IMG/VR virus record: IMGVR_UViG_2600254997_000004
Source of the DNA: a virus
Lineage: Duplodnaviria; Heunggongvirae; Uroviricota; Caudoviricetes
Strand: one strand, 5' to 3'
Length of the DNA: 18,257 nucleotides
In this document: positions 1,327 to 18,257 of the stretch, piece by piece
How positions within the stretch are numbered: position 1 is the first letter of the stretch
How the letters are laid out: every line of letters starts with the position of its first letter
The notes under the pieces: generated by a model
Told to the model about the DNA's origin: nothing
Database searches by the model: none
What the model saw: only the letters and a program-made list of their open reading frames with translations
Translations under genes and position numbers: made by a program

Positions 1327-1656
1327 CTATGCCACGACCTGTTCAAAATCTGCCGTTATGGTTACCCACAGCGCCCCCACGCTTGCCGACCATTTACGAC
1401 AAACCACCCTAATCGGTTTCCAGTCATAAGGTGGCGTCCACTGAAATGCGCGGACGCCACCGTGCCGTTCCAGAAAGGCTTTTAAAGATGGGTGTTCACA
1501 TTTACGAACACGTATCGTCACGCTGTAAGTCGACAACTGGTTATTCAGTCCCGCCGCACGACGCTGTTCATAACCATCGCCCAGCTTCACTGTCACCACT
1601 TTCGGCTCTGATACCACATTCATATCCGGGCGCACTTTCCAGTGAAACGTCTCCAT
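1327..1656 (-). CDS. M: Minor tail protein M (lambda gpM-like, 109 aa)
   Basis: 109 aa, the lambda gpM length; its ATG overlaps the tape measure stop (TAATG); conserved position between H and L. Confidence 0.85.
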   Translation of the reverse strand: METFHWKVRPDMNVVSEPKVVTVKLGDGYEQRRAAGLNNQLSTYSVTIRVRKCEHPSLKAFLERHGGVRAFQWTPPYDWKPIRVVCRKWSASVGALWVTITADFEQVVA

Positions 1657-4600
1657 TACCGATATGCTCCACTTAACCGACCACCATCACGGGCCTGCTG
1701 TTGCATAAAGTCCGCTGCCGCTTTTTTCCCGAGGTCATAAACCGCCTTCAGGGCAGCCGGACCTATCTGCCCGTTCGTGCCATCGTTATTGATCTCGATG
1801 TTGTACTGCGGGGAAAACATCGCCATACCTGAACCCCCAATATCCGCCACAACCCCCAGCTTACCGTCAGCACCACGACGCAATGGCAGAATGGCTTCAG
1901 GTCCCGCTTCCCCCATCACACCTGCACCTTTTGCAAAAGCAAAAAACGTCGGACGGTTAACCACCGTGCCACTGTAGCGACTCAAATCAGCAGACTGATA
2001 AACACCACCATCAGCATTGGGCGTCACACTGGCAGTTGCTGCACTCCCCCAGCCAAACGCCGAACCAATCCCCTTAACTGCCTGCATCATGGACATCTGA
2101 GCCATGATTTTTGCCAGATCAGAAAGGAGCGAGGCGGTAAAAGATTTGAAGTTCAGTTTTCCGGTGGTACAGAATGTAGCCAGTGCATTACCTGCACTAT
2201 TAAATGCCGCTGTAAGCATCTGCTCCGCAGTGCCTGCCGCATTATCCGCATCTGCCGTGAAATTCTGAAACGCCCGCATGGCACCGTTTTTCCAGTTACC
2301 CTGAGCAATTTCAAGCTGTTGCCAGTAACGGCGATTCTCATTCAGTTGCCTGTTCAGGCTCTCCGTCAGCGCCTGCTCGGCCTTTCTGTAGTCATCCGTG
2401 TTATATGTCCCTTTCTGCTCACTATCCCGCCTCAACTGCTCCAGCTGTTGCTGGTATTTCTGGCGAAGGCTCAGTTGTACCTGATATCGCTGCCGCTGCT
2501 GATCACCCATACCCACCGTGGCGATATCCAGGTCATGTTGCTGACGCTGAGCGCGCTCTTCTTCAGCCAGTTGACTGGTCAGCTGAATTGTTTTTTTCTT
2601 CAGATCGTTGAGTGCCGTCTGTTTCTGAAGCTCCTGCTGTTTTACATCCAGCAGCGTCAGTGCCTGAATCAGTTCATCTTTACGGGCCAGCACACTCTTT
2701 TCATCTGCCGTCAGTTTTTTCCCGTCCAGGTCGCTGATGCGCTGCTGCAGAGCCAGAAGCTGTTTATGCGCTTCTGTCATCCTGTCAGTGGCAATGCCTG
2801 CTGACTGTCTGGCAGCAGCAATCTGTCCTTCCACCTGTGCCTGTTGCTGGCTGTACTGCAGCAATAACCGGGTGGCCTCATCATTACGGGTTTCGCGTGT
2901 TTTTTTCTTACCGGATGCCAGGGCTTTCTCGTAACGTTCATTTTCACGTTGTATCGCCGCATCCCTGACAGCCTGATCGGCGTACTGCATGGCATTAATA
3001 CGCGCAATTTCACGCTGATGTCGTGCTGCTTCCGTTTCATTCATCCGGTTCAGTGCAGCATTTTCAGCATTACGGCGTTTCTGTTGCTCCTGATAATTCC
3101 GCTCTGCCTGCTCTTTTGCATCCTGCAAATCCTTCTGGCGTTTTTTCTCCTGAAGCTCGTTAAGACGCTGCTGATCGTATTCAACCTGAGAAGATGATGC
3201 CGTCCAGGGGAGTCTTTTCGCCCGCGATACTTTCTCCTGCAAAGTGGCAATCTGCGCATCCAGCGAATCTTCACGACCAATATTCATGGCCGCATCCCAG
3301 AACTGCTTCCACCAGTCAGACAAGGTTTGCAGCGTACTACCCAGCGCATTGAGGTTATTATCAATATCCGCAGTACGCCGACCGGTTTCCTCTGCCAGTG
3401 CAGACATGGCTATCCGTGCCGCATCACTGGACCGCCCCTGCTCTCCAAGGATGCGTATCTGCTCAAGCTGAGTGGCAGTAAGAAAATGCAGCTCATTGTC
3501 CAGAGCCTTCGCGGCATTTACAGGATCATCCTTCAGCCGCTTAAACTGATTTATGGTATCGCTGATCGACTGGCCAACCGATCGCTCCATCTGTGCGGCA
3601 GCTCTCGCCACCATACCGATATCGTTTCCACGAAATGCACCACTCCCCACCACCTGAGCCAGCGCACCGGCTGCAGCATGTTGCGTGATACCATTCCCGG
3701 AAATAGCACGACTGAGCGTCCACAGCTGCCCGGCAGTGACTCCGGCATAATGCCCCGTCAGCGACAGCTGGCGGTTAAATTCTTCCCCCTCCTTCTGACC
3801 GTCATACCAGGCTTTACCCAGACCATAGACAGCCGCGGCAATACCGCCAATAACCCCGCCCAGCATCATGCCTTTCGGTGACATCAGTGTGTCTATCCAT
3901 CCGGCACGGTTAGCCAGCGTTATCCCGGATCCCCTCAGCGCCCCTAAATTGCCGCGGGCCAGTTCACCTATCAGAACGCCTATCTCCTGGCGGGCCGCTG
4001 CACTTTTCAGACCCAGCGAATGCGTGGCTTTTCCTGCCCGCTCCATTTTGCGGATATACACTTCTGCAGCACTGCTTACCCCCAGCTGGGCAGCCTTAGC
4101 ACGAAGCAACTCAGAAGATGAAAGATTCTGGCGGGTTGCCTGCTCTTTAAGCTGACGGATAAACGCCACTTTCTGTCGGGTACCCTCTTCCTCAGCCTGT
4201 GTAAGAACACGGGTTTTCGCCGTAACCTCAGAAATCAGCGCCAGATAATCCTGCTGACCAATCCCGCCACTGTTTCTGGCCTGTCGGATCTGCTGCTGAA
4301 TACGCTGTAATTCCTGCAGCCCCGCATTGGCCTGTTTCACACTGTCAATCTGACGATAAAACGCAGCAGCCGCTTTATCCTGAGCCTCCGCCAGAGCCAT
4401 GGCCTGCGCCTGTTCCTCGCGCATTTTCTGGCTCAGCGCCTCCATGCGCTGGCGGGTTTTCTCCACCTCGCGGGCCATGCGTTCATGAGCCTGTGCGTTC
4501 TTCTCCACCGTCTGCGCATGGACGGATGCGGCTGTTGCAGCCGAAGAAGCCGCCTGCGTTGTCTGCCGGGCGGCCTGAGTCTGACGCTCCATAAAACGCT

Positions 4601-4730
4601 GCATACGGGCAGAAGACCGTTCTGCATCGCTGGCTGCACCATTCAGAAGGTTTTTGATACGGGGGATTTCATTTTTAAACTCTGCCGCATCAATCCCCAA
4701 ATCAATGACCAGGTTGGCTATCTGGTCCAT
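1656..4730 (-). CDS. H: Tail tape measure protein (lambda gpH-like, about 1024 aa)
   Basis: Long coiled-coil-rich ORF; C-terminus NNDGTNGQIGPAALKAVYD matches the lambda gpH C-terminal motif. Start placed at ATG 4730 (MDQIANLVIDLG, GGAGGTG upstream); the ORF-track start at 4760 is a TTG extension. Confidence 0.9.
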   Translation of the reverse strand: MDQIANLVIDLGIDAAEFKNEIPRIKNLLNGAASDAERSSARMQRFMERQTQAARQTTQAASSAATAASVHAQTVEKNAQAHERMAREVEKTRQRMEALSQKMREEQAQAMALAEAQDKAAAAFYRQIDSVKQANAGLQELQRIQQQIRQARNSGGIGQQDYLALISEVTAKTRVLTQAEEEGTRQKVAFIRQLKEQATRQNLSSSELLRAKAAQLGVSSAAEVYIRKMERAGKATHSLGLKSAAARQEIGVLIGELARGNLGALRGSGITLANRAGWIDTLMSPKGMMLGGVIGGIAAAVYGLGKAWYDGQKEGEEFNRQLSLTGHYAGVTAGQLWTLSRAISGNGITQHAAAGALAQVVGSGAFRGNDIGMVARAAAQMERSVGQSISDTINQFKRLKDDPVNAAKALDNELHFLTATQLEQIRILGEQGRSSDAARIAMSALAEETGRRTADIDNNLNALGSTLQTLSDWWKQFWDAAMNIGREDSLDAQIATLQEKVSRAKRLPWTASSSQVEYDQQRLNELQEKKRQKDLQDAKEQAERNYQEQQKRRNAENAALNRMNETEAARHQREIARINAMQYADQAVRDAAIQRENERYEKALASGKKKTRETRNDEATRLLLQYSQQQAQVEGQIAAARQSAGIATDRMTEAHKQLLALQQRISDLDGKKLTADEKSVLARKDELIQALTLLDVKQQELQKQTALNDLKKKTIQLTSQLAEEERAQRQQHDLDIATVGMGDQQRQRYQVQLSLRQKYQQQLEQLRRDSEQKGTYNTDDYRKAEQALTESLNRQLNENRRYWQQLEIAQGNWKNGAMRAFQNFTADADNAAGTAEQMLTAAFNSAGNALATFCTTGKLNFKSFTASLLSDLAKIMAQMSMMQAVKGIGSAFGWGSAATASVTPNADGGVYQSADLSRYSGTVVNRPTFFAFAKGAGVMGEAGPEAILPLRRGADGKLGVVADIGGSGMAMFSPQYNIEINNDGTNGQIGPAALKAVYDLGKKAAADFMQQQARDGGRLSGAYR

Positions 4731-5052
4731 AACGCACACCTCCGGAAATACCTTCCCCAAGATGCATCAGTTCTTCGTCCGTTCGCTCCGGTATCCCGTT
4801 CTCTTCCGGTAAAAGGCTGAAATCAGCCACCGCAGCATCACTGCTGCCGGACACCATTCTCACGATCAATGCCTTCAGCGAGGCAAACTGCGCATCCATC
4901 CACACATCACTGAAGCTCTGCATCCGGAAATAATCGCCCCACTCACCAAGCTCAGTGGCCGACATTTCCGACAGCATCCGCCGCCAGTCTGCCCGCCGGA
5001 ACTCCCGGGCAAGCCGCATGACAAACTGCATTTCCCGCGTCAGGACTTTTCC
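4702..5052 (-). CDS. T: T segment of the G-T tail assembly chaperone, reached by programmed -1 frameshift from G
   Basis: The frame encoding ...MQFVMRLAREFRR... is open from 5064 to the stop at 4702 and lies -1 relative to G. It overlaps the last G codons at heptamer G GAA AAG (5052..5046), analogous to the lambda G GGA AAG slip site. Confidence 0.75.
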   Translation of the reverse strand, partial: GKVLTREMQFVMRLAREFRRADWRRMLSEMSATELGEWGDYFRMQSFSDVWMDAQFASLKALIVRMVSGSSDAAVADFSLLPEENGIPERTDEELMHLGEGISGGVRYGPDSQPGH

Positions 5053-7228: not shown

Positions 7229-7468
7229 TTACTCAATAAAGATCATTGGCTTACCGTTAAAGCGTTCATGCCGTGTGACCGTCCAATGTTGTCCGTCATA
7301 AACAACGCGATCCCCGCGCCGTGGGCGGTATCCCAAAGAAAACACCACCAGAGAGACAGCAGGTCCGGACAGAGCATTCAGCTCTGCCAGTGTTTCGCCC
7401 GGGATCACAGCCATATCGACATCATTAATCGAGGGCTGTCTTTCCCATCTTTCTGACCGTGATCGCAT
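7229..7468 (-). CDS. Small head-tail connector or head completion protein (FII-position gene), 79 aa, function not recognised
   Basis: ORF with ATG start, tightly packed between the upstream small structural gene and Z in the same orientation; no recognisable motif. Confidence 0.5.
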   Translation of the reverse strand: MRSRSERWERQPSINDVDMAVIPGETLAELNALSGPAVSLVVFSLGYRPRRGDRVVYDGQHWTVTRHERFNGKPMIFIE

Positions 7469-7497
7469 CCATACGCGCTGCCAGCCGAGAAAAGGGA

Positions 7498-7821
7498 TCA
7501 GACATTGAGTTTTACCGGCACTTCTTCTGCACTGGTTCCGGCATCTGCCCAGACAACCCCGACCAGCGGATCAGAGCCGCTGTTAGTCAGCTGAACTTTT
7601 CCGGACTTCAGATAAACCTTCTTACCCGTTTTCATGTCATCCGTTTTCAGCTTAGGCAGGATAAACACACCTTCGGTCATGCCGTCGCCTGTTTCACCCT
7701 GTGGAATATCGGTCAGCGCCACCGCAAAAACATCACCCACCTGCACCAGATCTCCGCTGCTGATGGCTGCACTGGCAACAATCGCCACCGTTTTTCCTTC
7801 TTCTACAAAATTCTTTGCCAT
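7498..7821 (-). CDS. Small capsid-associated protein (DUF2190-like; possible head decoration or connector protein)
   Basis: Start at ATG 7821 (MAKNFVEEGK) with GGAG 6 nt upstream, placed just downstream of the capsid terminator; Gly/Val-rich beta-type sequence of a kind often found right after major capsid genes. Confidence 0.6.
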   Translation of the reverse strand: MAKNFVEEGKTVAIVASAAISSGDLVQVGDVFAVALTDIPQGETGDGMTEGVFILPKLKTDDMKTGKKVYLKSGKVQLTNSGSDPLVGVVWADAGTSAEEVPVKLNV

Positions 7822-11388: not shown

Positions 11389-11600
11389 CAGAACCTCGCC
11401 AGCCGGTACCCGGGATGCCCCCGTCGTCGTGTAATCAGAGCCGCAAGGCGGCGCTCCCACTCCTGCCGTCCCTGCCGGATCTCAGATAAGTTTTCCATTG
11501 TCATCTGCTGACCATTAAAGGTGACGGATTTTCCGTCCAGCACCGCCATTTCAGCTTCCGTATAACGCTGAATCATGGCTTCGATATCATTCTGGTTCAT
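11388..11600 (-). CDS. W: Head-tail joining protein (lambda gpW-like, 70 aa)
   Basis: Small protein ending ...ITRRRGHPGYRLARF, comparable to the gpW C-terminus; its ATG at 11600 overlaps the terminase stop (ATGA) with GGAGG 6 nt upstream. Confidence 0.75.
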   Translation of the reverse strand: MNQNDIEAMIQRYTEAEMAVLDGKSVTFNGQQMTMENLSEIRQGRQEWERRLAALITRRRGHPGYRLARF

Positions 11601-13699
11601 AACCATCCTCCGGAAGTCAGCCAGGGGTTAACATCGTCAGTTACTGTTTTCTTCCGTTTTTGTTTTTTAACAGGCGTGGATACCGGTTCCGGTGAGGGTG
11701 ACGGTTCGGTACTGTCCGGGACACACTCCAGCCAGGTTTCCCGGCTCGCCCACTCCGGTGCATCCGGCCAGCGGATCTTTTCGTATCCATGCAGAATGAC
11801 CAGAGCCTCGGCATACACCATCAGGTCAAAAGCTTCGTTGGCACCGCGACCCGGCTTACTCCATTTCCCGTCACTACTCCGCTCTTCATACGTCAGTTCG
11901 TCGTAAAACCAGCTCCCCAGCCAGTCAGGGAAATGCACATAGCCGGGACCTGGCGAGTCACGCCATAACGCGTTATTCACCCGGTCTTTCAGGGCATCCG
12001 TCTGAAGAAGCCAGAGCGGCACATCACCTGCGGCCTGCGCCCGTCGGCCCGTTCGTCCGGTGTTATCAGGGAATGTACGGGTGATCAGTTTTGCGCGCCG
12101 GATGCTGTCGCCCTTAAACAGGTAAATACGTTTACCAAGGCCATCACGACGGCAACGACGCCAGAATTTATAGGCATTATCAGTGACCCCGTCTTCACCG
12201 CCGGAGTCCACCGCCATTGCCATCAGTCGCATTTGTTGAGAAGGATCGGAGGCCAGCGGCCAGCTTTTATGAAAAACATCCGTCAGCAGGACATCCCAGT
12301 CTTCCGGATAGCTGGCCGGATCAATTCGCTGGCTCTCCCCGTCGCTGTCACCGCGCAATGACTGCGTGATGTTGTAACGATCAATAATCCAGCGTTCGCC
12401 ACGGCTGCCATAGCCCGTTACCTGAACCACAAAACGGCGATGACGTCCCGCCTGCACATCAACTGTCGCCACCAGGAAATTAACGCCATCCGGCACACTG
12501 CGGGAAGGAACTGGCTCTGCCCGCTGCTCAAGCAGTTCACTTTTTCGTTGCTCCATGCTGGCACGGGGAAGATAAGGTAATCCCCAGTCGGTATTGATAA
12601 CCGTCTTGAGTGTTTCTTCACTTCCGGTTGTCTCGTATTCCTGTTCTGCAGTAAGCAGTTTGTAAACGAGTTGCGAGAGTGTCTGGTAAGCAGCTGCCGG
12701 ACCCTCCATCCAGAATGACGCAATACGTGAGCGTCGGGGATCACCATAACGACTGCCATCCGCATTGATGGATTCACCATCCCGCAACCAGACCCCACGT
12801 CCGTTCAGCTCACGTTTTTGTTCAGGCATAATCCGTCCTGAACAGGAAGGACACTGAATATAAGCCGCCTCACTTGCCAGCACGGGATCGGCAATATCAC
12901 GGAAACCAGCAACCACATCGCCGCAGGGCTGAAAATACTCACCACAGTGTGGACAGGGCCAGTACCAGCGACGGCGATCGCCACGGTTATAGAGCGACAG
13001 TATCCCCGTGGTTGGTGGAGCCTCATGCGGTGAAGTCCGTCGCCATTTCACATCCTTCACATCCCTGCCGGGGGAACTCTCCACCAGCGTCATACCACTG
13101 GACATAAATGTGGTGGTACGTTTTGAGGCAAGAGAGAAGGCATCCCCCTCGCCATCAATATCTTCCGGAAAACGGTCATAATCCGTCAGCGCCACGCATT
13201 TATAATCTGATGAGGACATGATATTGACTGACGGCCAGCCGATTTTCAGGTAGTTGCCAGCAAGGAATGTTCTGTCATAAACGTTGTTGTCATTTTTGTT
13301 CGGACTCAGGCGACTGACCACTTCCGGGCTGACGCGAAACGTTCTGGCAAGTCGTTTTTTGGAGTGTTCGCGGGCTTTTTCCTCCGTCATCTGAATGATC
13401 AGCATATCAGCAGGATCGCAAATCACATTGTAAATCACCCAGCCGTCAATCAGGCCGATAGTCTTGCCAGTTCGTGCCGGGCCAACAAATATCACTGCGT
13501 CGTATTCACGCGAGGCCAGGCAGTTCATCGGCTCAATAACATACGGTGCCACCAGCGGATCCCACGGGACTGAATTCCCGGCCCCCATGGGCACCCGCAT
13601 ATACTGAGCAACGGCATCAGCAACCCGCATTCGTCTCGGTGCGCGAAGGATATAACCTGAATCGGTTCGTGCTGCCTTTGCGGTTTCCTGATTCAGCAT
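11597..13699 (-). CDS. Terminase large subunit (lambda gpA family, 700 aa)
   Basis: 700 aa with a Cys-rich CPHCGEYF...CPSCSG segment like lambda gpA (CPHCGEE...); start overlaps the Nu1 stop (TAATG) with AGGAGGAG upstream. Confidence 0.9.
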   Translation of the reverse strand: MLNQETAKAARTDSGYILRAPRRMRVADAVAQYMRVPMGAGNSVPWDPLVAPYVIEPMNCLASREYDAVIFVGPARTGKTIGLIDGWVIYNVICDPADMLIIQMTEEKAREHSKKRLARTFRVSPEVVSRLSPNKNDNNVYDRTFLAGNYLKIGWPSVNIMSSSDYKCVALTDYDRFPEDIDGEGDAFSLASKRTTTFMSSGMTLVESSPGRDVKDVKWRRTSPHEAPPTTGILSLYNRGDRRRWYWPCPHCGEYFQPCGDVVAGFRDIADPVLASEAAYIQCPSCSGRIMPEQKRELNGRGVWLRDGESINADGSRYGDPRRSRIASFWMEGPAAAYQTLSQLVYKLLTAEQEYETTGSEETLKTVINTDWGLPYLPRASMEQRKSELLEQRAEPVPSRSVPDGVNFLVATVDVQAGRHRRFVVQVTGYGSRGERWIIDRYNITQSLRGDSDGESQRIDPASYPEDWDVLLTDVFHKSWPLASDPSQQMRLMAMAVDSGGEDGVTDNAYKFWRRCRRDGLGKRIYLFKGDSIRRAKLITRTFPDNTGRTGRRAQAAGDVPLWLLQTDALKDRVNNALWRDSPGPGYVHFPDWLGSWFYDELTYEERSSDGKWSKPGRGANEAFDLMVYAEALVILHGYEKIRWPDAPEWASRETWLECVPDSTEPSPSPEPVSTPVKKQKRKKTVTDDVNPWLTSGGWL

Positions 13700-14379: not shown

Positions 14380-14550
14380 CGTGGCAGGCCACCCCACCAG
14401 GAGGACCCGTCAGCCTGACAGCCATGACGAACGTCTGATACAGCGCCCTGCATGAATGGCATCGGGATAATCCAGAAAGGAATAGCATCGTACCTACAAG
14501 AATCTGTGTGAGCGTCCTGTTTCTTCCACCCCCGCACAGGACTGGCGAGC

Positions 14551-15499: not shown

Positions 15500-15530
15500 T
15501 CATTAAATTGACTTTGTGATTTGCAAAAAA

Positions 15531-15998: not shown

Positions 15999-16492
15999 TG
16001 CTGCCCCCACAAACAGACTTCACGCTCAATATCACGACGGGTCATCAGCCCTTTCCATTGCTTACCGCCAGCGTATGTCCAGCGACGTAGCTGGTCACAT
16101 GCGCCTTTGATATCACCCTGGTTTATTTTGCGAAGAAGCGTCGATGTTCTGAAATTACCAGCGCCCACGTTGTAAACGAACGAGTAAAGAGCGCCGCGCG
16201 TTGTTTCCGGTATATCGACTTTGATGTACGGGTTAATTTGTCTGGCGACCATGGCAAGGTCTTTATTCAGGAGGGCTTTGCATTCTGCTTCGGTATACGT
16301 TTTACCGGGAATGATGTCTTTTCCGGTGTGTCCGTGACATACAGTCCATACGCCAACGATATCTTCGTATGGTATGTAGCTGACACCTTCCTGGCCATCG
16401 TCACCACTCGGACCAGTGATGAGCACAGACGCTATGGCAACAGCCCCACCACCAATAGCAGCAGCAACAGCCTTGCGTAATGATGGCGACAT
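15995..16492 (-). CDS. R: SAR endolysin (phage 21 R-like lysozyme)
   Basis: N-terminal Gly/Ala-rich SAR segment ([20 protein letters not shown]) followed by a lysozyme core ([16 protein letters not shown]); very similar to R21 as I recall it. Confidence 0.9.
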
Positions 16493-16707
16493 TATTCACC
16501 TCTCGCAGCCTTACGCTTATCTTCTTTAATCTTGAAATAAAGGTTTGTCAGATACGTCAGCAAGCCAAACACCAGGCTACCCAATACGCCTATTGCCACC
16601 CACTGGGATGGGGAGACTTTGTCCAGCAACTGCAGTAGCCAGTATCCCGTCCCCACCGCTGACGTGGTGTATGACACACCTGTTGTTATTTTTTCCATCT
16701 GGTACAT
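16492..16707 (-). CDS. S: Pinholin (phage 21 S-like) with dual-start motif
   Basis: [10 protein letters not shown]...[40 protein letters not shown] resembles S21; Met1 and Met4 give 71-aa and 68-aa forms; GGGAG upstream of the ATG at 16707. Confidence 0.9.
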
Positions 16708-16807: not shown

Positions 16808-16935
16808 TTGACAATAATGATAATGTTTATATAGAAAGGTTCCCGATGTGTGTTACATATCATTTCTCCACGGGGAATATCCCCACGCCAGCGCAGACTC
16901 TTTTACCCGTTCTCTTCTGCGCTGGCTCTTTTTTA
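16808..16935 (+). ncRNA. Candidate small RNA: sigma70-like promoter (TTGACA-N16-TATAGA, 16808-16835) plus two stem-loops and a U-tract terminator (to 16935)
   Basis: -35 TTGACA at 16808-16813 and -10 TATAGA at 16830-16835; hairpin GGGGA-ATA-TCCCC (16872-16884); perfect 11-bp inverted repeat GCCAGCGCAGA/TCTGCGCTGGC (16887-16926) followed by TCTTTTTTATT; antisense to the tR'-to-S spacer. Confidence 0.3.
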
Positions 16936-17115
16936 TTATGCTGCTGCATTTACCTCTGGCACCATGCTTTCTATCTCAACACAATACGTGGTACTTCTTG
17001 TAACCAATATCATAACGATTAATCGACATAGAATTTCTCCCGTGTACAGGAACAGAGTTAAAAAGCCGGAACCGGAATCAAATCACAGGATGACCATCTG
17101 CCAGTGGCAGGTCAT

Positions 17116-17142
17116 AAAAAAAAGGCCGCGCCATGCGCAGCC
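17116..17142 (-). terminator. Strong intrinsic terminator (tR'-like) about 410 nt upstream of the holin gene
   Basis: Minus-strand RNA GGCUGCGC-AUG-GCGCGGCC (8-bp stem) followed by 8 U; its position relative to S mirrors lambda tR'. Confidence 0.7.
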
Positions 17143-17296
17143 AGAACTCACAAGGAAAATGATAGAAGGAAATAACATTAGTGATGTACGCATGGCGCCT
17201 CCCGCTAAGTTCTGCAATGATCAAACAGAATTCGCTACGTGCCCTTAAAACTCAATCATTTAGCCCCTCCAAGGAGGATTCACCATGCGGTTGATT

Positions 17297-17325
17297 TTTT
17301 AATAAACAGTAAACAAAAAAGTCAA
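17297..17325 (-). promoter_or_regulatory. Candidate late promoter (pR'-like) about 170 nt upstream of the tR'-like terminator
   Basis: Minus-strand TTGACT (plus 17320-17325) followed after 15-16 bp by TATTAA/ATTAAA; AT-rich upstream; spacing to the terminator is like the lambda pR'-6S-tR' arrangement. Confidence 0.3.
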
Positions 17326-17328
17326 GGA

Positions 17329-17439
17329 TTATTCATTCTGTTTTTTCATCATCGGCCACAGCAATACCACAATGCCGCAGACCAGAGCGCCATCAGTCAG
17401 TACCAACATTATCCTGCTGGTGAAATCCATCATCACCAT
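17329..17439 (-). CDS. Hypothetical 36-aa hydrophobic peptide (single predicted transmembrane helix, basic C-terminus)
   Basis: ATG at 17439..17437, stop TAA at 17331..17329; MVMMDFTSRIMLVLTDGALVCGIVVLLWPMMKKQNE; no clear Shine-Dalgarno; ends 4 nt before the candidate -35. Confidence 0.3.
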   Translation of the reverse strand: MVMMDFTSRIMLVLTDGALVCGIVVLLWPMMKKQNE

Positions 17440-17573
17440 CACTAAAAAGCAGGATCACAACAGCAAGCAGACACAGTTTATAAAACAATGTTCAGAAAAC
17501 GCATTCAGCATGCCTAAGGTTCTATTCCTACGAATAGCCAACTTGCAACTTAAAATATTATTTATGCAGCCAA

Positions 17574-17813
17574 TTAAATTCTGGTCCTTACAATATCAAC
17601 CTGAAGATTCTTATCTTGTGCTGATTGATAAATGACAAACCTTTTACTACCTGCATTGAAAGAAGTAGACAAAACCAGACAATTATCATAACGAGCAAGA
17701 ACATAATACCAACCATCATTATAATTAATCATTTCATATTCTTTCTTAAACTGCGGTTTGTAATATCCTGTCAGAAATGAAAAAAGCCAGAAATATGCCA
17801 CAAAAGCAATCAT
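17574..17813 (-). CDS. Hypothetical 79-aa protein with N-terminal hydrophobic segment, encoded in the AT-rich island
   Basis: ATG at 17813 (the ORF-track start at 17816 is GTG); MIAFVAYFWLFSFLTGYY then a polar domain; surrounding DNA is far more AT-rich than the rest of the prophage; weak ribosome binding site. Confidence 0.45.
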   Translation of the reverse strand: MIAFVAYFWLFSFLTGYYKPQFKKEYEMINYNDGWYYVLARYDNCLVLSTSFNAGSKRFVIYQSAQDKNLQVDIVRTRI

Positions 17814-17865
17814 CACAATCTCAAAAAAATGTTTTTTATAAATGGCTTATCATAGAAGCATGATA

Positions 17866-18257
17866 CTGATGAATCCCCTAATGATTTTTATCAAAATCAT
17901 TAAGTTAAGGTAGATACACATCTTGTCATATGATCAAATGGTTTCGCCAAAAATCAATAATCAGACAACAAAATGTGCGAACTCGATATTTTACACGACT
18001 CTCTTTACCAATTCTGCCCCGAATTACACTTAAAACGACTCAACAGCTTAACGTTGGCTTGCCACGCCTTACTTGACTGTAAAACTCTCACTCTTACCGA
18101 ACTTGGCCGTAACCTGCCAACCAAAGCGAGAACAAAACATAACATCAAACGAATCGACCGATTGTTAGGTAATCGTCACCTCCTCAAAGAGCGACTCGCT
18201 GTATACCGTTGGCATGCTAGCTTTATCTGTTCGGGCAATACGATGCCCATTGTACTT
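17866..18257 (+). mobile_element. IS10 (IS4 family, Tn10-type) outside end and 5' portion; continues beyond the window
   Basis: From 17866 the sequence reads CTGATGAATCCCCTAATGATTTTTATCAAAATCATTAAG..., which I recognise as the IS10 terminal inverted repeat, followed by the IS10 transposase start; abrupt junction with the AT-rich island. Confidence 0.85.
17973..18257 (+). CDS. IS10 transposase, N-terminal part (truncated by window end)
   Basis: ATG at 17973 (IS10 bp 108) opens MCELDILHDSLYQFCPELHLKRLNSLTLACHALLDCKTLTLTELGRNLPTKARTKHNIKRIDRLLGNRHLHKERLAVYRWHASFICSGNTMPIVL, open to the end of the window. Confidence 0.85.
   Translation, partial: MCELDILHDSLYQFCPELHLKRLNSLTLACHALLDCKTLTLTELGRNLPTKARTKHNIKRIDRLLGNRHLLKERLAVYRWHASFICSGNTMPIVL

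Follow-up and report, generated by a model that had tools for sequence, protein, structure and literature searches.

The DUF3927/TciB family is already known: it has entries in Pfam (PF13064) and PHROGs (PHROG 1470), and it is annotated in hundreds of Escherichia coli genomes. The name Tci (tellurite/colicin/cell-division) was given, according to record notes and later papers, by homology to a neighboring TerB-like gene of phage P1. In P1, tciB (P1_gp075; DUF3927, PHROG 1470) is the middle gene of tciA (TerB-like)-tciB-tciC, in which stop and start codons overlap, and the group lies outside any Q-holin slot. P1 TciB shares two hydrophobic segments, a DFTS motif, and a DG.LV...WP core with the family members discussed below (about 42% identity overall, 53% within residues 21 to 52). 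Direct experiments on any TciB were not found in the searchable literature.

The closest described genes are those of phage 434 (CPT_434_69, annotated as TciB) and of EPEC E2348/69 (WP_000499456.1 in PP4; E2348C_0687 in PP2). In both, tciB is intact, starts with TTG, and encodes 52 aa, and the gene order is that of a 247-aa membrane protein, tciB, a PasD small RNA (sRNA), and a holin. At the homologous position in E2348/69, a 159-nt coding sequence (CDS) is annotated as “DUF3927 family protein.” Stx2 phages carry stx2AB and STnc100 at the same kind of cargo site, ahead of the lysis genes in the late region; the STnc100/PasD-family sRNA lies 75 nt after stx2 in these phages and 41 nt after tciB in E2348/69. 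The cargo of the Stx2 phages is a toxin, whereas the cassette studied here consists of two membrane proteins without toxin identity.

We analyzed an 18,257-nt stretch of DNA from a member of the Caudoviricetes (IMG/VR record IMGVR_UViG_2600254997_000004), which is referred to here as the window. Over 17.9 kb it shares 98.9% identity with a lambdoid prophage of EPEC E2348/69, and the same gene lies at the same position as in E2348/69 and phage 434. An initial annotation, made from the sequence alone, had proposed a 36-aa hydrophobic peptide gene near the end of the window, resembling a type I toxin or a small membrane peptide and ending just before a late promoter. The open reading frame (ORF) does exist. 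It lies on the minus strand, from an ATG at 17439-17437 to a TAA stop at 17331-17329, and encodes 36 aa (MVMMDFTSRIMLVLTDGALVCGIVVLLWPMMKKQNE), or 37 aa if a GTG at 17442 is taken as the alternative start. The peptide has a single hydrophobic stretch (maximum 11-residue Kyte-Doolittle mean, +2.9) followed by a KKQNE tail, in agreement with the hydrophobic helix and charged tail originally described. The annotation was also right that a clear Shine-Dalgarno sequence is missing, as there is no canonical GGAGG upstream of the ORF. The sole elements there that pair with the anti-Shine-Dalgarno sequence are GUGAUC/GGUGAU, of which GGUGAU stands immediately 5' of an ATG at 17430 and has a calculated duplex energy of -10.0 kcal/mol with the 16S rRNA 3' end.

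ORFs of at least 36 aa are common locally (12 in the six frames of the 1.1-kb segment 16751-17867, versus 5.1 +/- 2.1 in mononucleotide shuffles), and ORF length alone is therefore no evidence for a gene. Despite this local abundance, a chance ORF is ruled out by homology. The 37-aa ORF matches Pfam DUF3927 with an E value of 2.7e-14 (53.3 bits; cut-off, 25) and PHROG 1470, “TciB-like,” with 57.9 bits. The Pfam match covers ORF residues 3 to 35 on profile positions 17 to 49 of 53 only. The conserved core MDFTSRIMLVLTDGALVCGIVVLLWPMMK (D-F-T, then D-G..L-V......L-W-P..K) is present and in frame in the window, and D21, F22, and T23 are invariant in all 26 aligned sequences. The peptide is identical to the PP4 protein of E2348/69 over codons 17 to 52 and differs from the phage 434 protein by one residue (K48E).

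E2348/69, phage 434, and O111:H11 strains carry intact 52-aa genes at this position; each of the intact 52-aa variants is recorded on between 691 and at least 1,000 contigs. In these intact relatives, the frame runs 16 codons further upstream and starts with TTG (M/L-FYKLCLLAVVILLLVMVMMDFTSRIM...KKQNE). The 36-aa ORF corresponds to the 3' two-thirds of a known 52-codon tciB and is most likely a frameshift by-product rather than an evolved peptide gene. Judged by its sequence, the window copy is a disrupted family member (a putative pseudogene) that retains the core and the genomic context of the family and lacks the full-length product of 50 to 55 aa. The features of the locus are collected in Table 1.

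Table 1. Coordinates of features in and around the tciB locus of the window
Feature	Position	Strand	Description
Class II (S21-type) holin gene	16492..16707	-	From E2348/69 homologue annotation and ORF list; downstream boundary of the M247-tciB-pasD1 cargo slot
PasD1 homologue (STnc100 family)	17116..17288	-	171/173 identical to PasD1 mapped in E2348/69
TTGACT-15 nt-TATTAA	17299..17325	-	Precedes the estimated 5' end of PasD1 by 11 nt
36-aa ORF	17329..17439	-	tciB (DUF3927) codons 17-52: DFTS motif, second hydrophobic segment, KKQNE tail, stop codon
Frameshift site	17444..17448		A5 on the plus strand (T5 on the coding strand); A4 in all relatives examined
Displaced tciB 5' end	17446..17488	-	TTG start (17488-17486) and first 14 codons (MFYKLCLLAVVILL, first hydrophobic segment)
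247-aa gene (M247), 3' remnant	17574..17867	-	About 98 codons; PHROG 1521, “STM1630 family” in some records; precedes tciB
IS10 end, start of transposase ORF	17868..18257	+	From the junction and Rfam RNA-OUT
RNA-OUT	17911-17980	-	Rfam, 97.3 bits; points out of IS10 towards the tciB remnant

The sole difference between the window and E2348/69 across tciB is one extra base. It shifts the frame after codon 14, and the frame that starts with TTG is now a 31-aa out-of-frame ORF (17393..17488) ending at 17393. An 81-nt query centered on the insertion site was searched against 5,426 complete E. coli genomes; of the 1,211 copies found (in 682 genomes), none was identical over 81 nt. The 40 best of these 1,211 copies match the query with a one-base gap (80-nt span, 98.8%), which corresponds to the A4 allele. 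Likewise, all 108 loci collected from fetched viral contigs and genomes, using a pattern that permits either run length, have A4 and intact ORFs of 52 to 55 aa. An allele search of species-representative genomes gave a single match, again A4, on a 3-kb contig of a “Veillonella sp.” metagenome-assembled genome (JAIITD010000172.1); this contig carries an E. coli prophage tciB and is probably mis-binned. The separate 36-aa ORF thus exists only through a private 1-nt insertion, and the proposal of a stand-alone peptide gene does not hold.

Two database entries of 36 and 37 aa are identical to the 36-aa peptide except for K48E (residue 32 of the peptide). Because one 36/37-aa entry lies on the chromosome of an E2348/69 derivative, with the same coordinates and identity as in E2348/69, at least some of these entries appear to be alternative starts called on intact alleles.

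Programmed recoding and transcriptional slippage were considered as the shift falls in a T run and its CUU-U context resembles that of prfB. Both were rejected as designed features, since no other copy has the extra base and the A-site codon is a normal Phe codon. A 5-base run is also too short for appreciable slippage by RNA polymerase.

Because the insertion lies in a homopolymer, it may be a sequencing or assembly error, in which case the true allele would be A4, tciB would be intact (52 aa), and the 36-aa ORF would be the product of a homopolymer miscall. This is the main alternative to a genuine mutation, although we consider it unlikely. Consistent with an error, the insertion in this 4/5-base run is unique among about 1,300 copies examined, and the window shows two more homopolymer-length changes relative to its nearest relatives, T6 for T7 at 17832-17837 in the M247 remnant and A6 for A7 at 15525, just 3' of the stop codon of an Rz-type lysis gene. 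Also, G3 instead of G2 at 7435 frameshifts a conserved 91-aa virion gene (approximately 7229-7505, minus strand), annotated in E2348/69 as “DNA breaking-rejoining protein”; the window reads MRSRSERWERQP... versus MSDPFSRLAARMDAITVRKMGKTA..., and the frames rejoin at SINDVDMAV.... This is a second, apparently private frameshift in the window prophage. On the other hand, real indels favor homopolymers too, and a prophage hit by IS10 plausibly gathers such mutations. Moreover, the large genes of the window are uninterrupted (1034 aa at 1656-4760, 700 aa at 11597-13699, and ORFs of 739 and 515 aa). The 1034-aa ORF, on the minus strand, is the tape-measure gene, whose E2348/69 homologue is annotated as frameshifted; at 2618, this frameshift belongs to E2348/69 and not to the window. 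Two further differences from E2348/69 were observed, an indel patch around 2021-2197 in the tape-measure gene and an 8-bp insertion at 14411-14418 (CAGCCTGA, a near-duplicate of the adjoining sequence) in a stretch that is gene-free in the E2348/69 annotation.

Comparison with distant homologues defines the unit that is conserved. Members of the family are 50 to 55 aa long and share one start column and the invariant DFT motif. The TciB proteins of P1 (54 aa), Evi (55 aa), and LMessi (51 aa) and about 20 database homologues can be aligned gap-free through column 47, and the start column, K4, and D21-F22-T23 are common to these three proteins and the 26 aligned homologues. The tciB start codon overlaps the stop codon of tciA (ATGA/GTGA) in the lineages of P1, Evi, and LMessi, and this overlap falls in the alignment column that holds the TTG of 434-type tciB. 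When 1.84 billion cluster representatives were searched with the family profile, 88 members were identified (E <= 1e-3); 72 of them reach 45 aa or more, and most begin their match at profile positions 1 to 15. A few short entries of 30 to 39 aa contain only the C-terminal part and resemble fragments or broken genes.

Between lineages, dN/dS values of 0.13 to 0.31 over codons 21 to 47 indicate that the frame is conserved under purifying selection; lack of such conservation had been named in the initial annotation as grounds for abandoning the ORF. Codons 2 to 20 evolve much faster (dN/dS, 0.15 to 1.7), with length, frame, and hydrophobicity kept. The first hydrophobic segment contributes less than 1 bit to the Pfam score, and the ancestral TTG start has no Shine-Dalgarno sequence; given these properties of the N-terminal part, the 52-aa form may not be the sole product with a function. 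Thus, the description as a small phage membrane peptide was partly correct: the ORF is coding sequence for such a protein, but the unit comprises 50 to 55 aa and has an additional N-terminal hydrophobic segment.

AlphaFold2 predicts the intact 52-aa form as one continuous helix spanning residues 2 to 51 (mean pLDDT, 82.5; pTM, 0.45) instead of a helical hairpin, although the actual protein may still adopt a hairpin or another topology. Fusions of TciB with TerB or other domains (Rosetta-stone proteins) were rejected, as the five longer matches look like frameshift read-throughs or chimeras. In four Escherichia albertii family members, one to three tandem 7-aa units (LEAGGWR) lie within the second hydrophobic segment, a repeat expansion in a small membrane-protein gene.

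In 79 of 80 related loci, the cassette between Q and the holin gene shows one of two architectures: (i) a 247-aa polytopic membrane protein (PHROG 1521), 88 nt, and then tciB (72 loci) or (ii) a TerB-like tciA that overlaps tciB (7 loci). tciB is operonic in all lineages, and in other phages it is the translationally coupled second gene of tciA-tciB. In the window, the upstream partner is itself interrupted, since M247 is cut by IS10 at 17868; Q lies beyond IS10, outside the window. The site and the orientation of the IS10 insertion are shared with two bovine O111:H11 genomes. Because these IS10-bearing relatives have A4 and T7, the A5 and T6 of the window are either later events or errors. 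The IS10 sequence of the window differs from the O111:H11 copies at 8 of about 390 positions, including a cluster (TTTTTATCAAAAT versus TTTTGGTAAAAAT). Searches with PADLOC and NCBIfam gave no matches for TciB or the 247-aa protein, and membership in a defense system was rejected.

Taken together, the window copy is probably an inactive tciB pseudogene in a decaying prophage, with the 36-aa ORF as a by-product of the frameshift. Intact TciB is a prophage membrane protein of 50 to 55 aa whose two hydrophobic segments are joined by the invariant DFT(S); its gene comes second in a cargo cassette flanked by Q and the holin gene, after that of the 247-aa protein (in the lineage of the window) or tciA. 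We infer that it probably works in the inner membrane as a small partner of whichever protein the preceding gene encodes, TciA or the 247-aa protein, in an accessory, lysogen-expressed envelope function. Knock-down of P1 tciB gave a plating efficiency of 0.99, and the gene was scored as nonessential (PMC10695390). In the window, the extra T in the T4 run of the coding strand cuts the core off from its TTG start and first hydrophobic segment. With the partner gene cut by IS10 as well, this copy would most likely have lost its function.

Two points speak against inactivation: the conserved core (DFTS...DG.LV...LWP.K) remains an open frame with in-frame ATG and GTG codons, and GGUGAU precedes the ATG at 17430. 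It is thus conceivable, though quite improbable, that a peptide of 33 to 37 aa is still made from starts in the ATG cluster at 17439-17430 and is membrane active, with a dominant-negative or mildly toxic effect. Transcription would come from read-through of IS10 pOUT or from residual late transcription. The pOUT promoter of IS10 transcribes outward into flanking genes, and RNA-OUT, hence pOUT, faces the tciB remnant. The C-terminal-only entries of 30 to 39 aa and the annotations of intact alleles in which the 36/37-aa ORF is called as a gene would also fit such a product. However, a canonical Shine-Dalgarno sequence is lacking, much of the sequence surrounding the ATG cluster is base-paired in the predicted local fold, and the short database entries resemble fragments or broken genes. 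Internal Met codons are not kept across the family either (P1 has LVDFTS and LMessi has AIDFTS). Since the allele is private, selection has not retained a truncated peptide.

More broadly, the allele might not be silent, either through a pOUT-driven fragment of 33 to 37 aa started at the ATGs at 17430-17439 or through a +1 slip that restores the 52-aa protein. In the latter case, a few ribosomes started at TTG would slip at CUU-U and regenerate ...ILLLVMVMM.... The GUGAUC-CUG-CUU-U context resembles the prfB shift site, with an element that pairs with the anti-Shine-Dalgarno sequence 3 nt upstream. Both routes are speculative and, taken together, very improbable; neither is conserved, because the allele is private. 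An inactive pseudogene is still the reading that we prefer.

The likeness to a type I toxin was not borne out. A type I toxin-antitoxin reading would call for an antisense or adjacent sRNA that represses a small hydrophobic toxin; this is the weakest of the readings, and we regard it as extremely improbable. The ORF resembles type I toxins (Hok, TisB, Ldr, Ibs, ShoB, Zor, and DinQ) in its size class (<60 aa) and in having a predicted hydrophobic membrane helix with a polar or charged end, which is a generic feature, and it adjoins an abundant Hfq-dependent sRNA, PasD1. However, PasD1 is co-directional with the ORF and does not overlap it. Even at its best, PasD1 pairs with tciB mRNA no more stably than with shuffled versions of that mRNA (z = -0.63), and without excess complementarity it was rejected as an antitoxin. 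The STnc100 sRNA family also follows unrelated cargo (stx2) in Stx phages, and the coupling of tciB to tciA in other phages marks it as operonic, unlike stand-alone type I toxins. An overlapping antisense RNA, suggested as a check on the toxin proposal, was not found either: the strand opposite the ORF has neither promoter- nor terminator-like sites within 17300-17520, and no Rfam antitoxin family was matched. No known toxin family was found in the Pfam scan, in which DUF3927 was the sole match. The accessible part of the EPEC RIL-seq tables contains no entry for the paralogue E2348C_0687, in sense or antisense.

The sequence downstream of the ORF, described in the initial annotation as a late promoter with a pR'-like -35, was misassigned. 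The TTGACT hexamer at 17325-17320, 4 bases past the ORF stop, lies just upstream of the PasD1 homologue, whereas in intact relatives the cassette is preceded by Q and a pR'-like sequence. The stop codon of Q is followed in E2348/69 by TTGACT-N17-GAAACT, an element that resembles pR' of phage 82. In phage 434, a terminator is annotated right after Q. The position of Q in intact relatives places tciB inside the late region and not before its promoter. The TTGACT-TATTAA pair was not reported by a promoter scan with spacers of 16 to 18 nt; nevertheless, its position makes it more likely a pasD1 promoter than a pR' -35.

PasD1 was mapped in E2348/69 as an abundant Hfq-dependent sRNA (NC_011601 1060260-1060432; PMC8550237). 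The homologue in the window begins about 40 nt past the tciB stop. Its 3' end is a strong terminator (stem 17142-17124, GGCTGCGCATGGCGCGGCC, followed by T8), the published Northern probe maps to 17132-17155, and the PasD1 seed sequences are also present. The two differences from E2348/69, at 17254 and 17231, are outside the published seed. The Rfam STnc100 model is matched over its full length with 32.5 bits, below the cut-off of 47; a subthreshold STnc100 match for PasD and the PasD-STnc100 link agree with a 2026 preprint (10.64898/2026.05.13.724894). In EHEC, the PasD1 homologue is named EcOnc13.

In published RNA-seq data from uninduced EPEC (PMC8550237 table S2), the intact cassette genes show clearly higher transcript levels than Q and the holin genes: the DESeq2 BaseMean is 36.7 for the DUF3927 paralogue and 226 and 147 for genes of the 247-aa protein, compared with 6.0 for Q and 3.5 and 5.4 for the holins, and pasD1 reaches about 8,650. 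The gap between the cassette and pasD1 suggests that pasD1 has its own promoter.

Two other annotated ORFs in this region were reconsidered. A 62-aa “putative membrane protein” of phage 434 (CPT_434_70) corresponds to 17083-17271 on the minus strand of the window; there, stop codons interrupt its frame and it shares sequence with PasD1, so that it is unlikely to be a gene. An Esr41-like sRNA lies upstream of the holin gene but on the opposite (plus) strand, at 16847-16936; its sequence is identical to that of E2348/69. The full-length Rfam Esr41 model matches it with 32.3 bits against a cut-off of 102, and the match closes with a long-loop terminator and a T run. In EPEC, RIL-seq chimeras occur at the homologous 3' end (NC_011601 1060613-1060654, minus strand) and are filed under CDS E2348C_1013, which has a BaseMean of 2064 and a log2 fold change of -2.9 in the differential-expression table of that study (PMC8550237). 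This evidence for an sRNA implies that the annotated 132-aa plus-strand ORF at 16850-17248, antisense to PasD1, may be spurious.

In itself, the finding is of little weight, as it concerns a disrupted copy of a known and widely annotated family. It does correct the local map, in that the supposed -35 is not that of pR' and stands a short distance 5' of the mapped sRNA PasD1. Because a single homopolymer indel created an apparent peptide gene here, a short hydrophobic ORF from a prophage late region ought to be checked against its relatives before it is called a toxin. The intact allele of TciB/DUF3927 is a fair target for small-protein work, being conserved, transcribed in lysogens, and located in a cargo position like that of the Shiga toxin genes.
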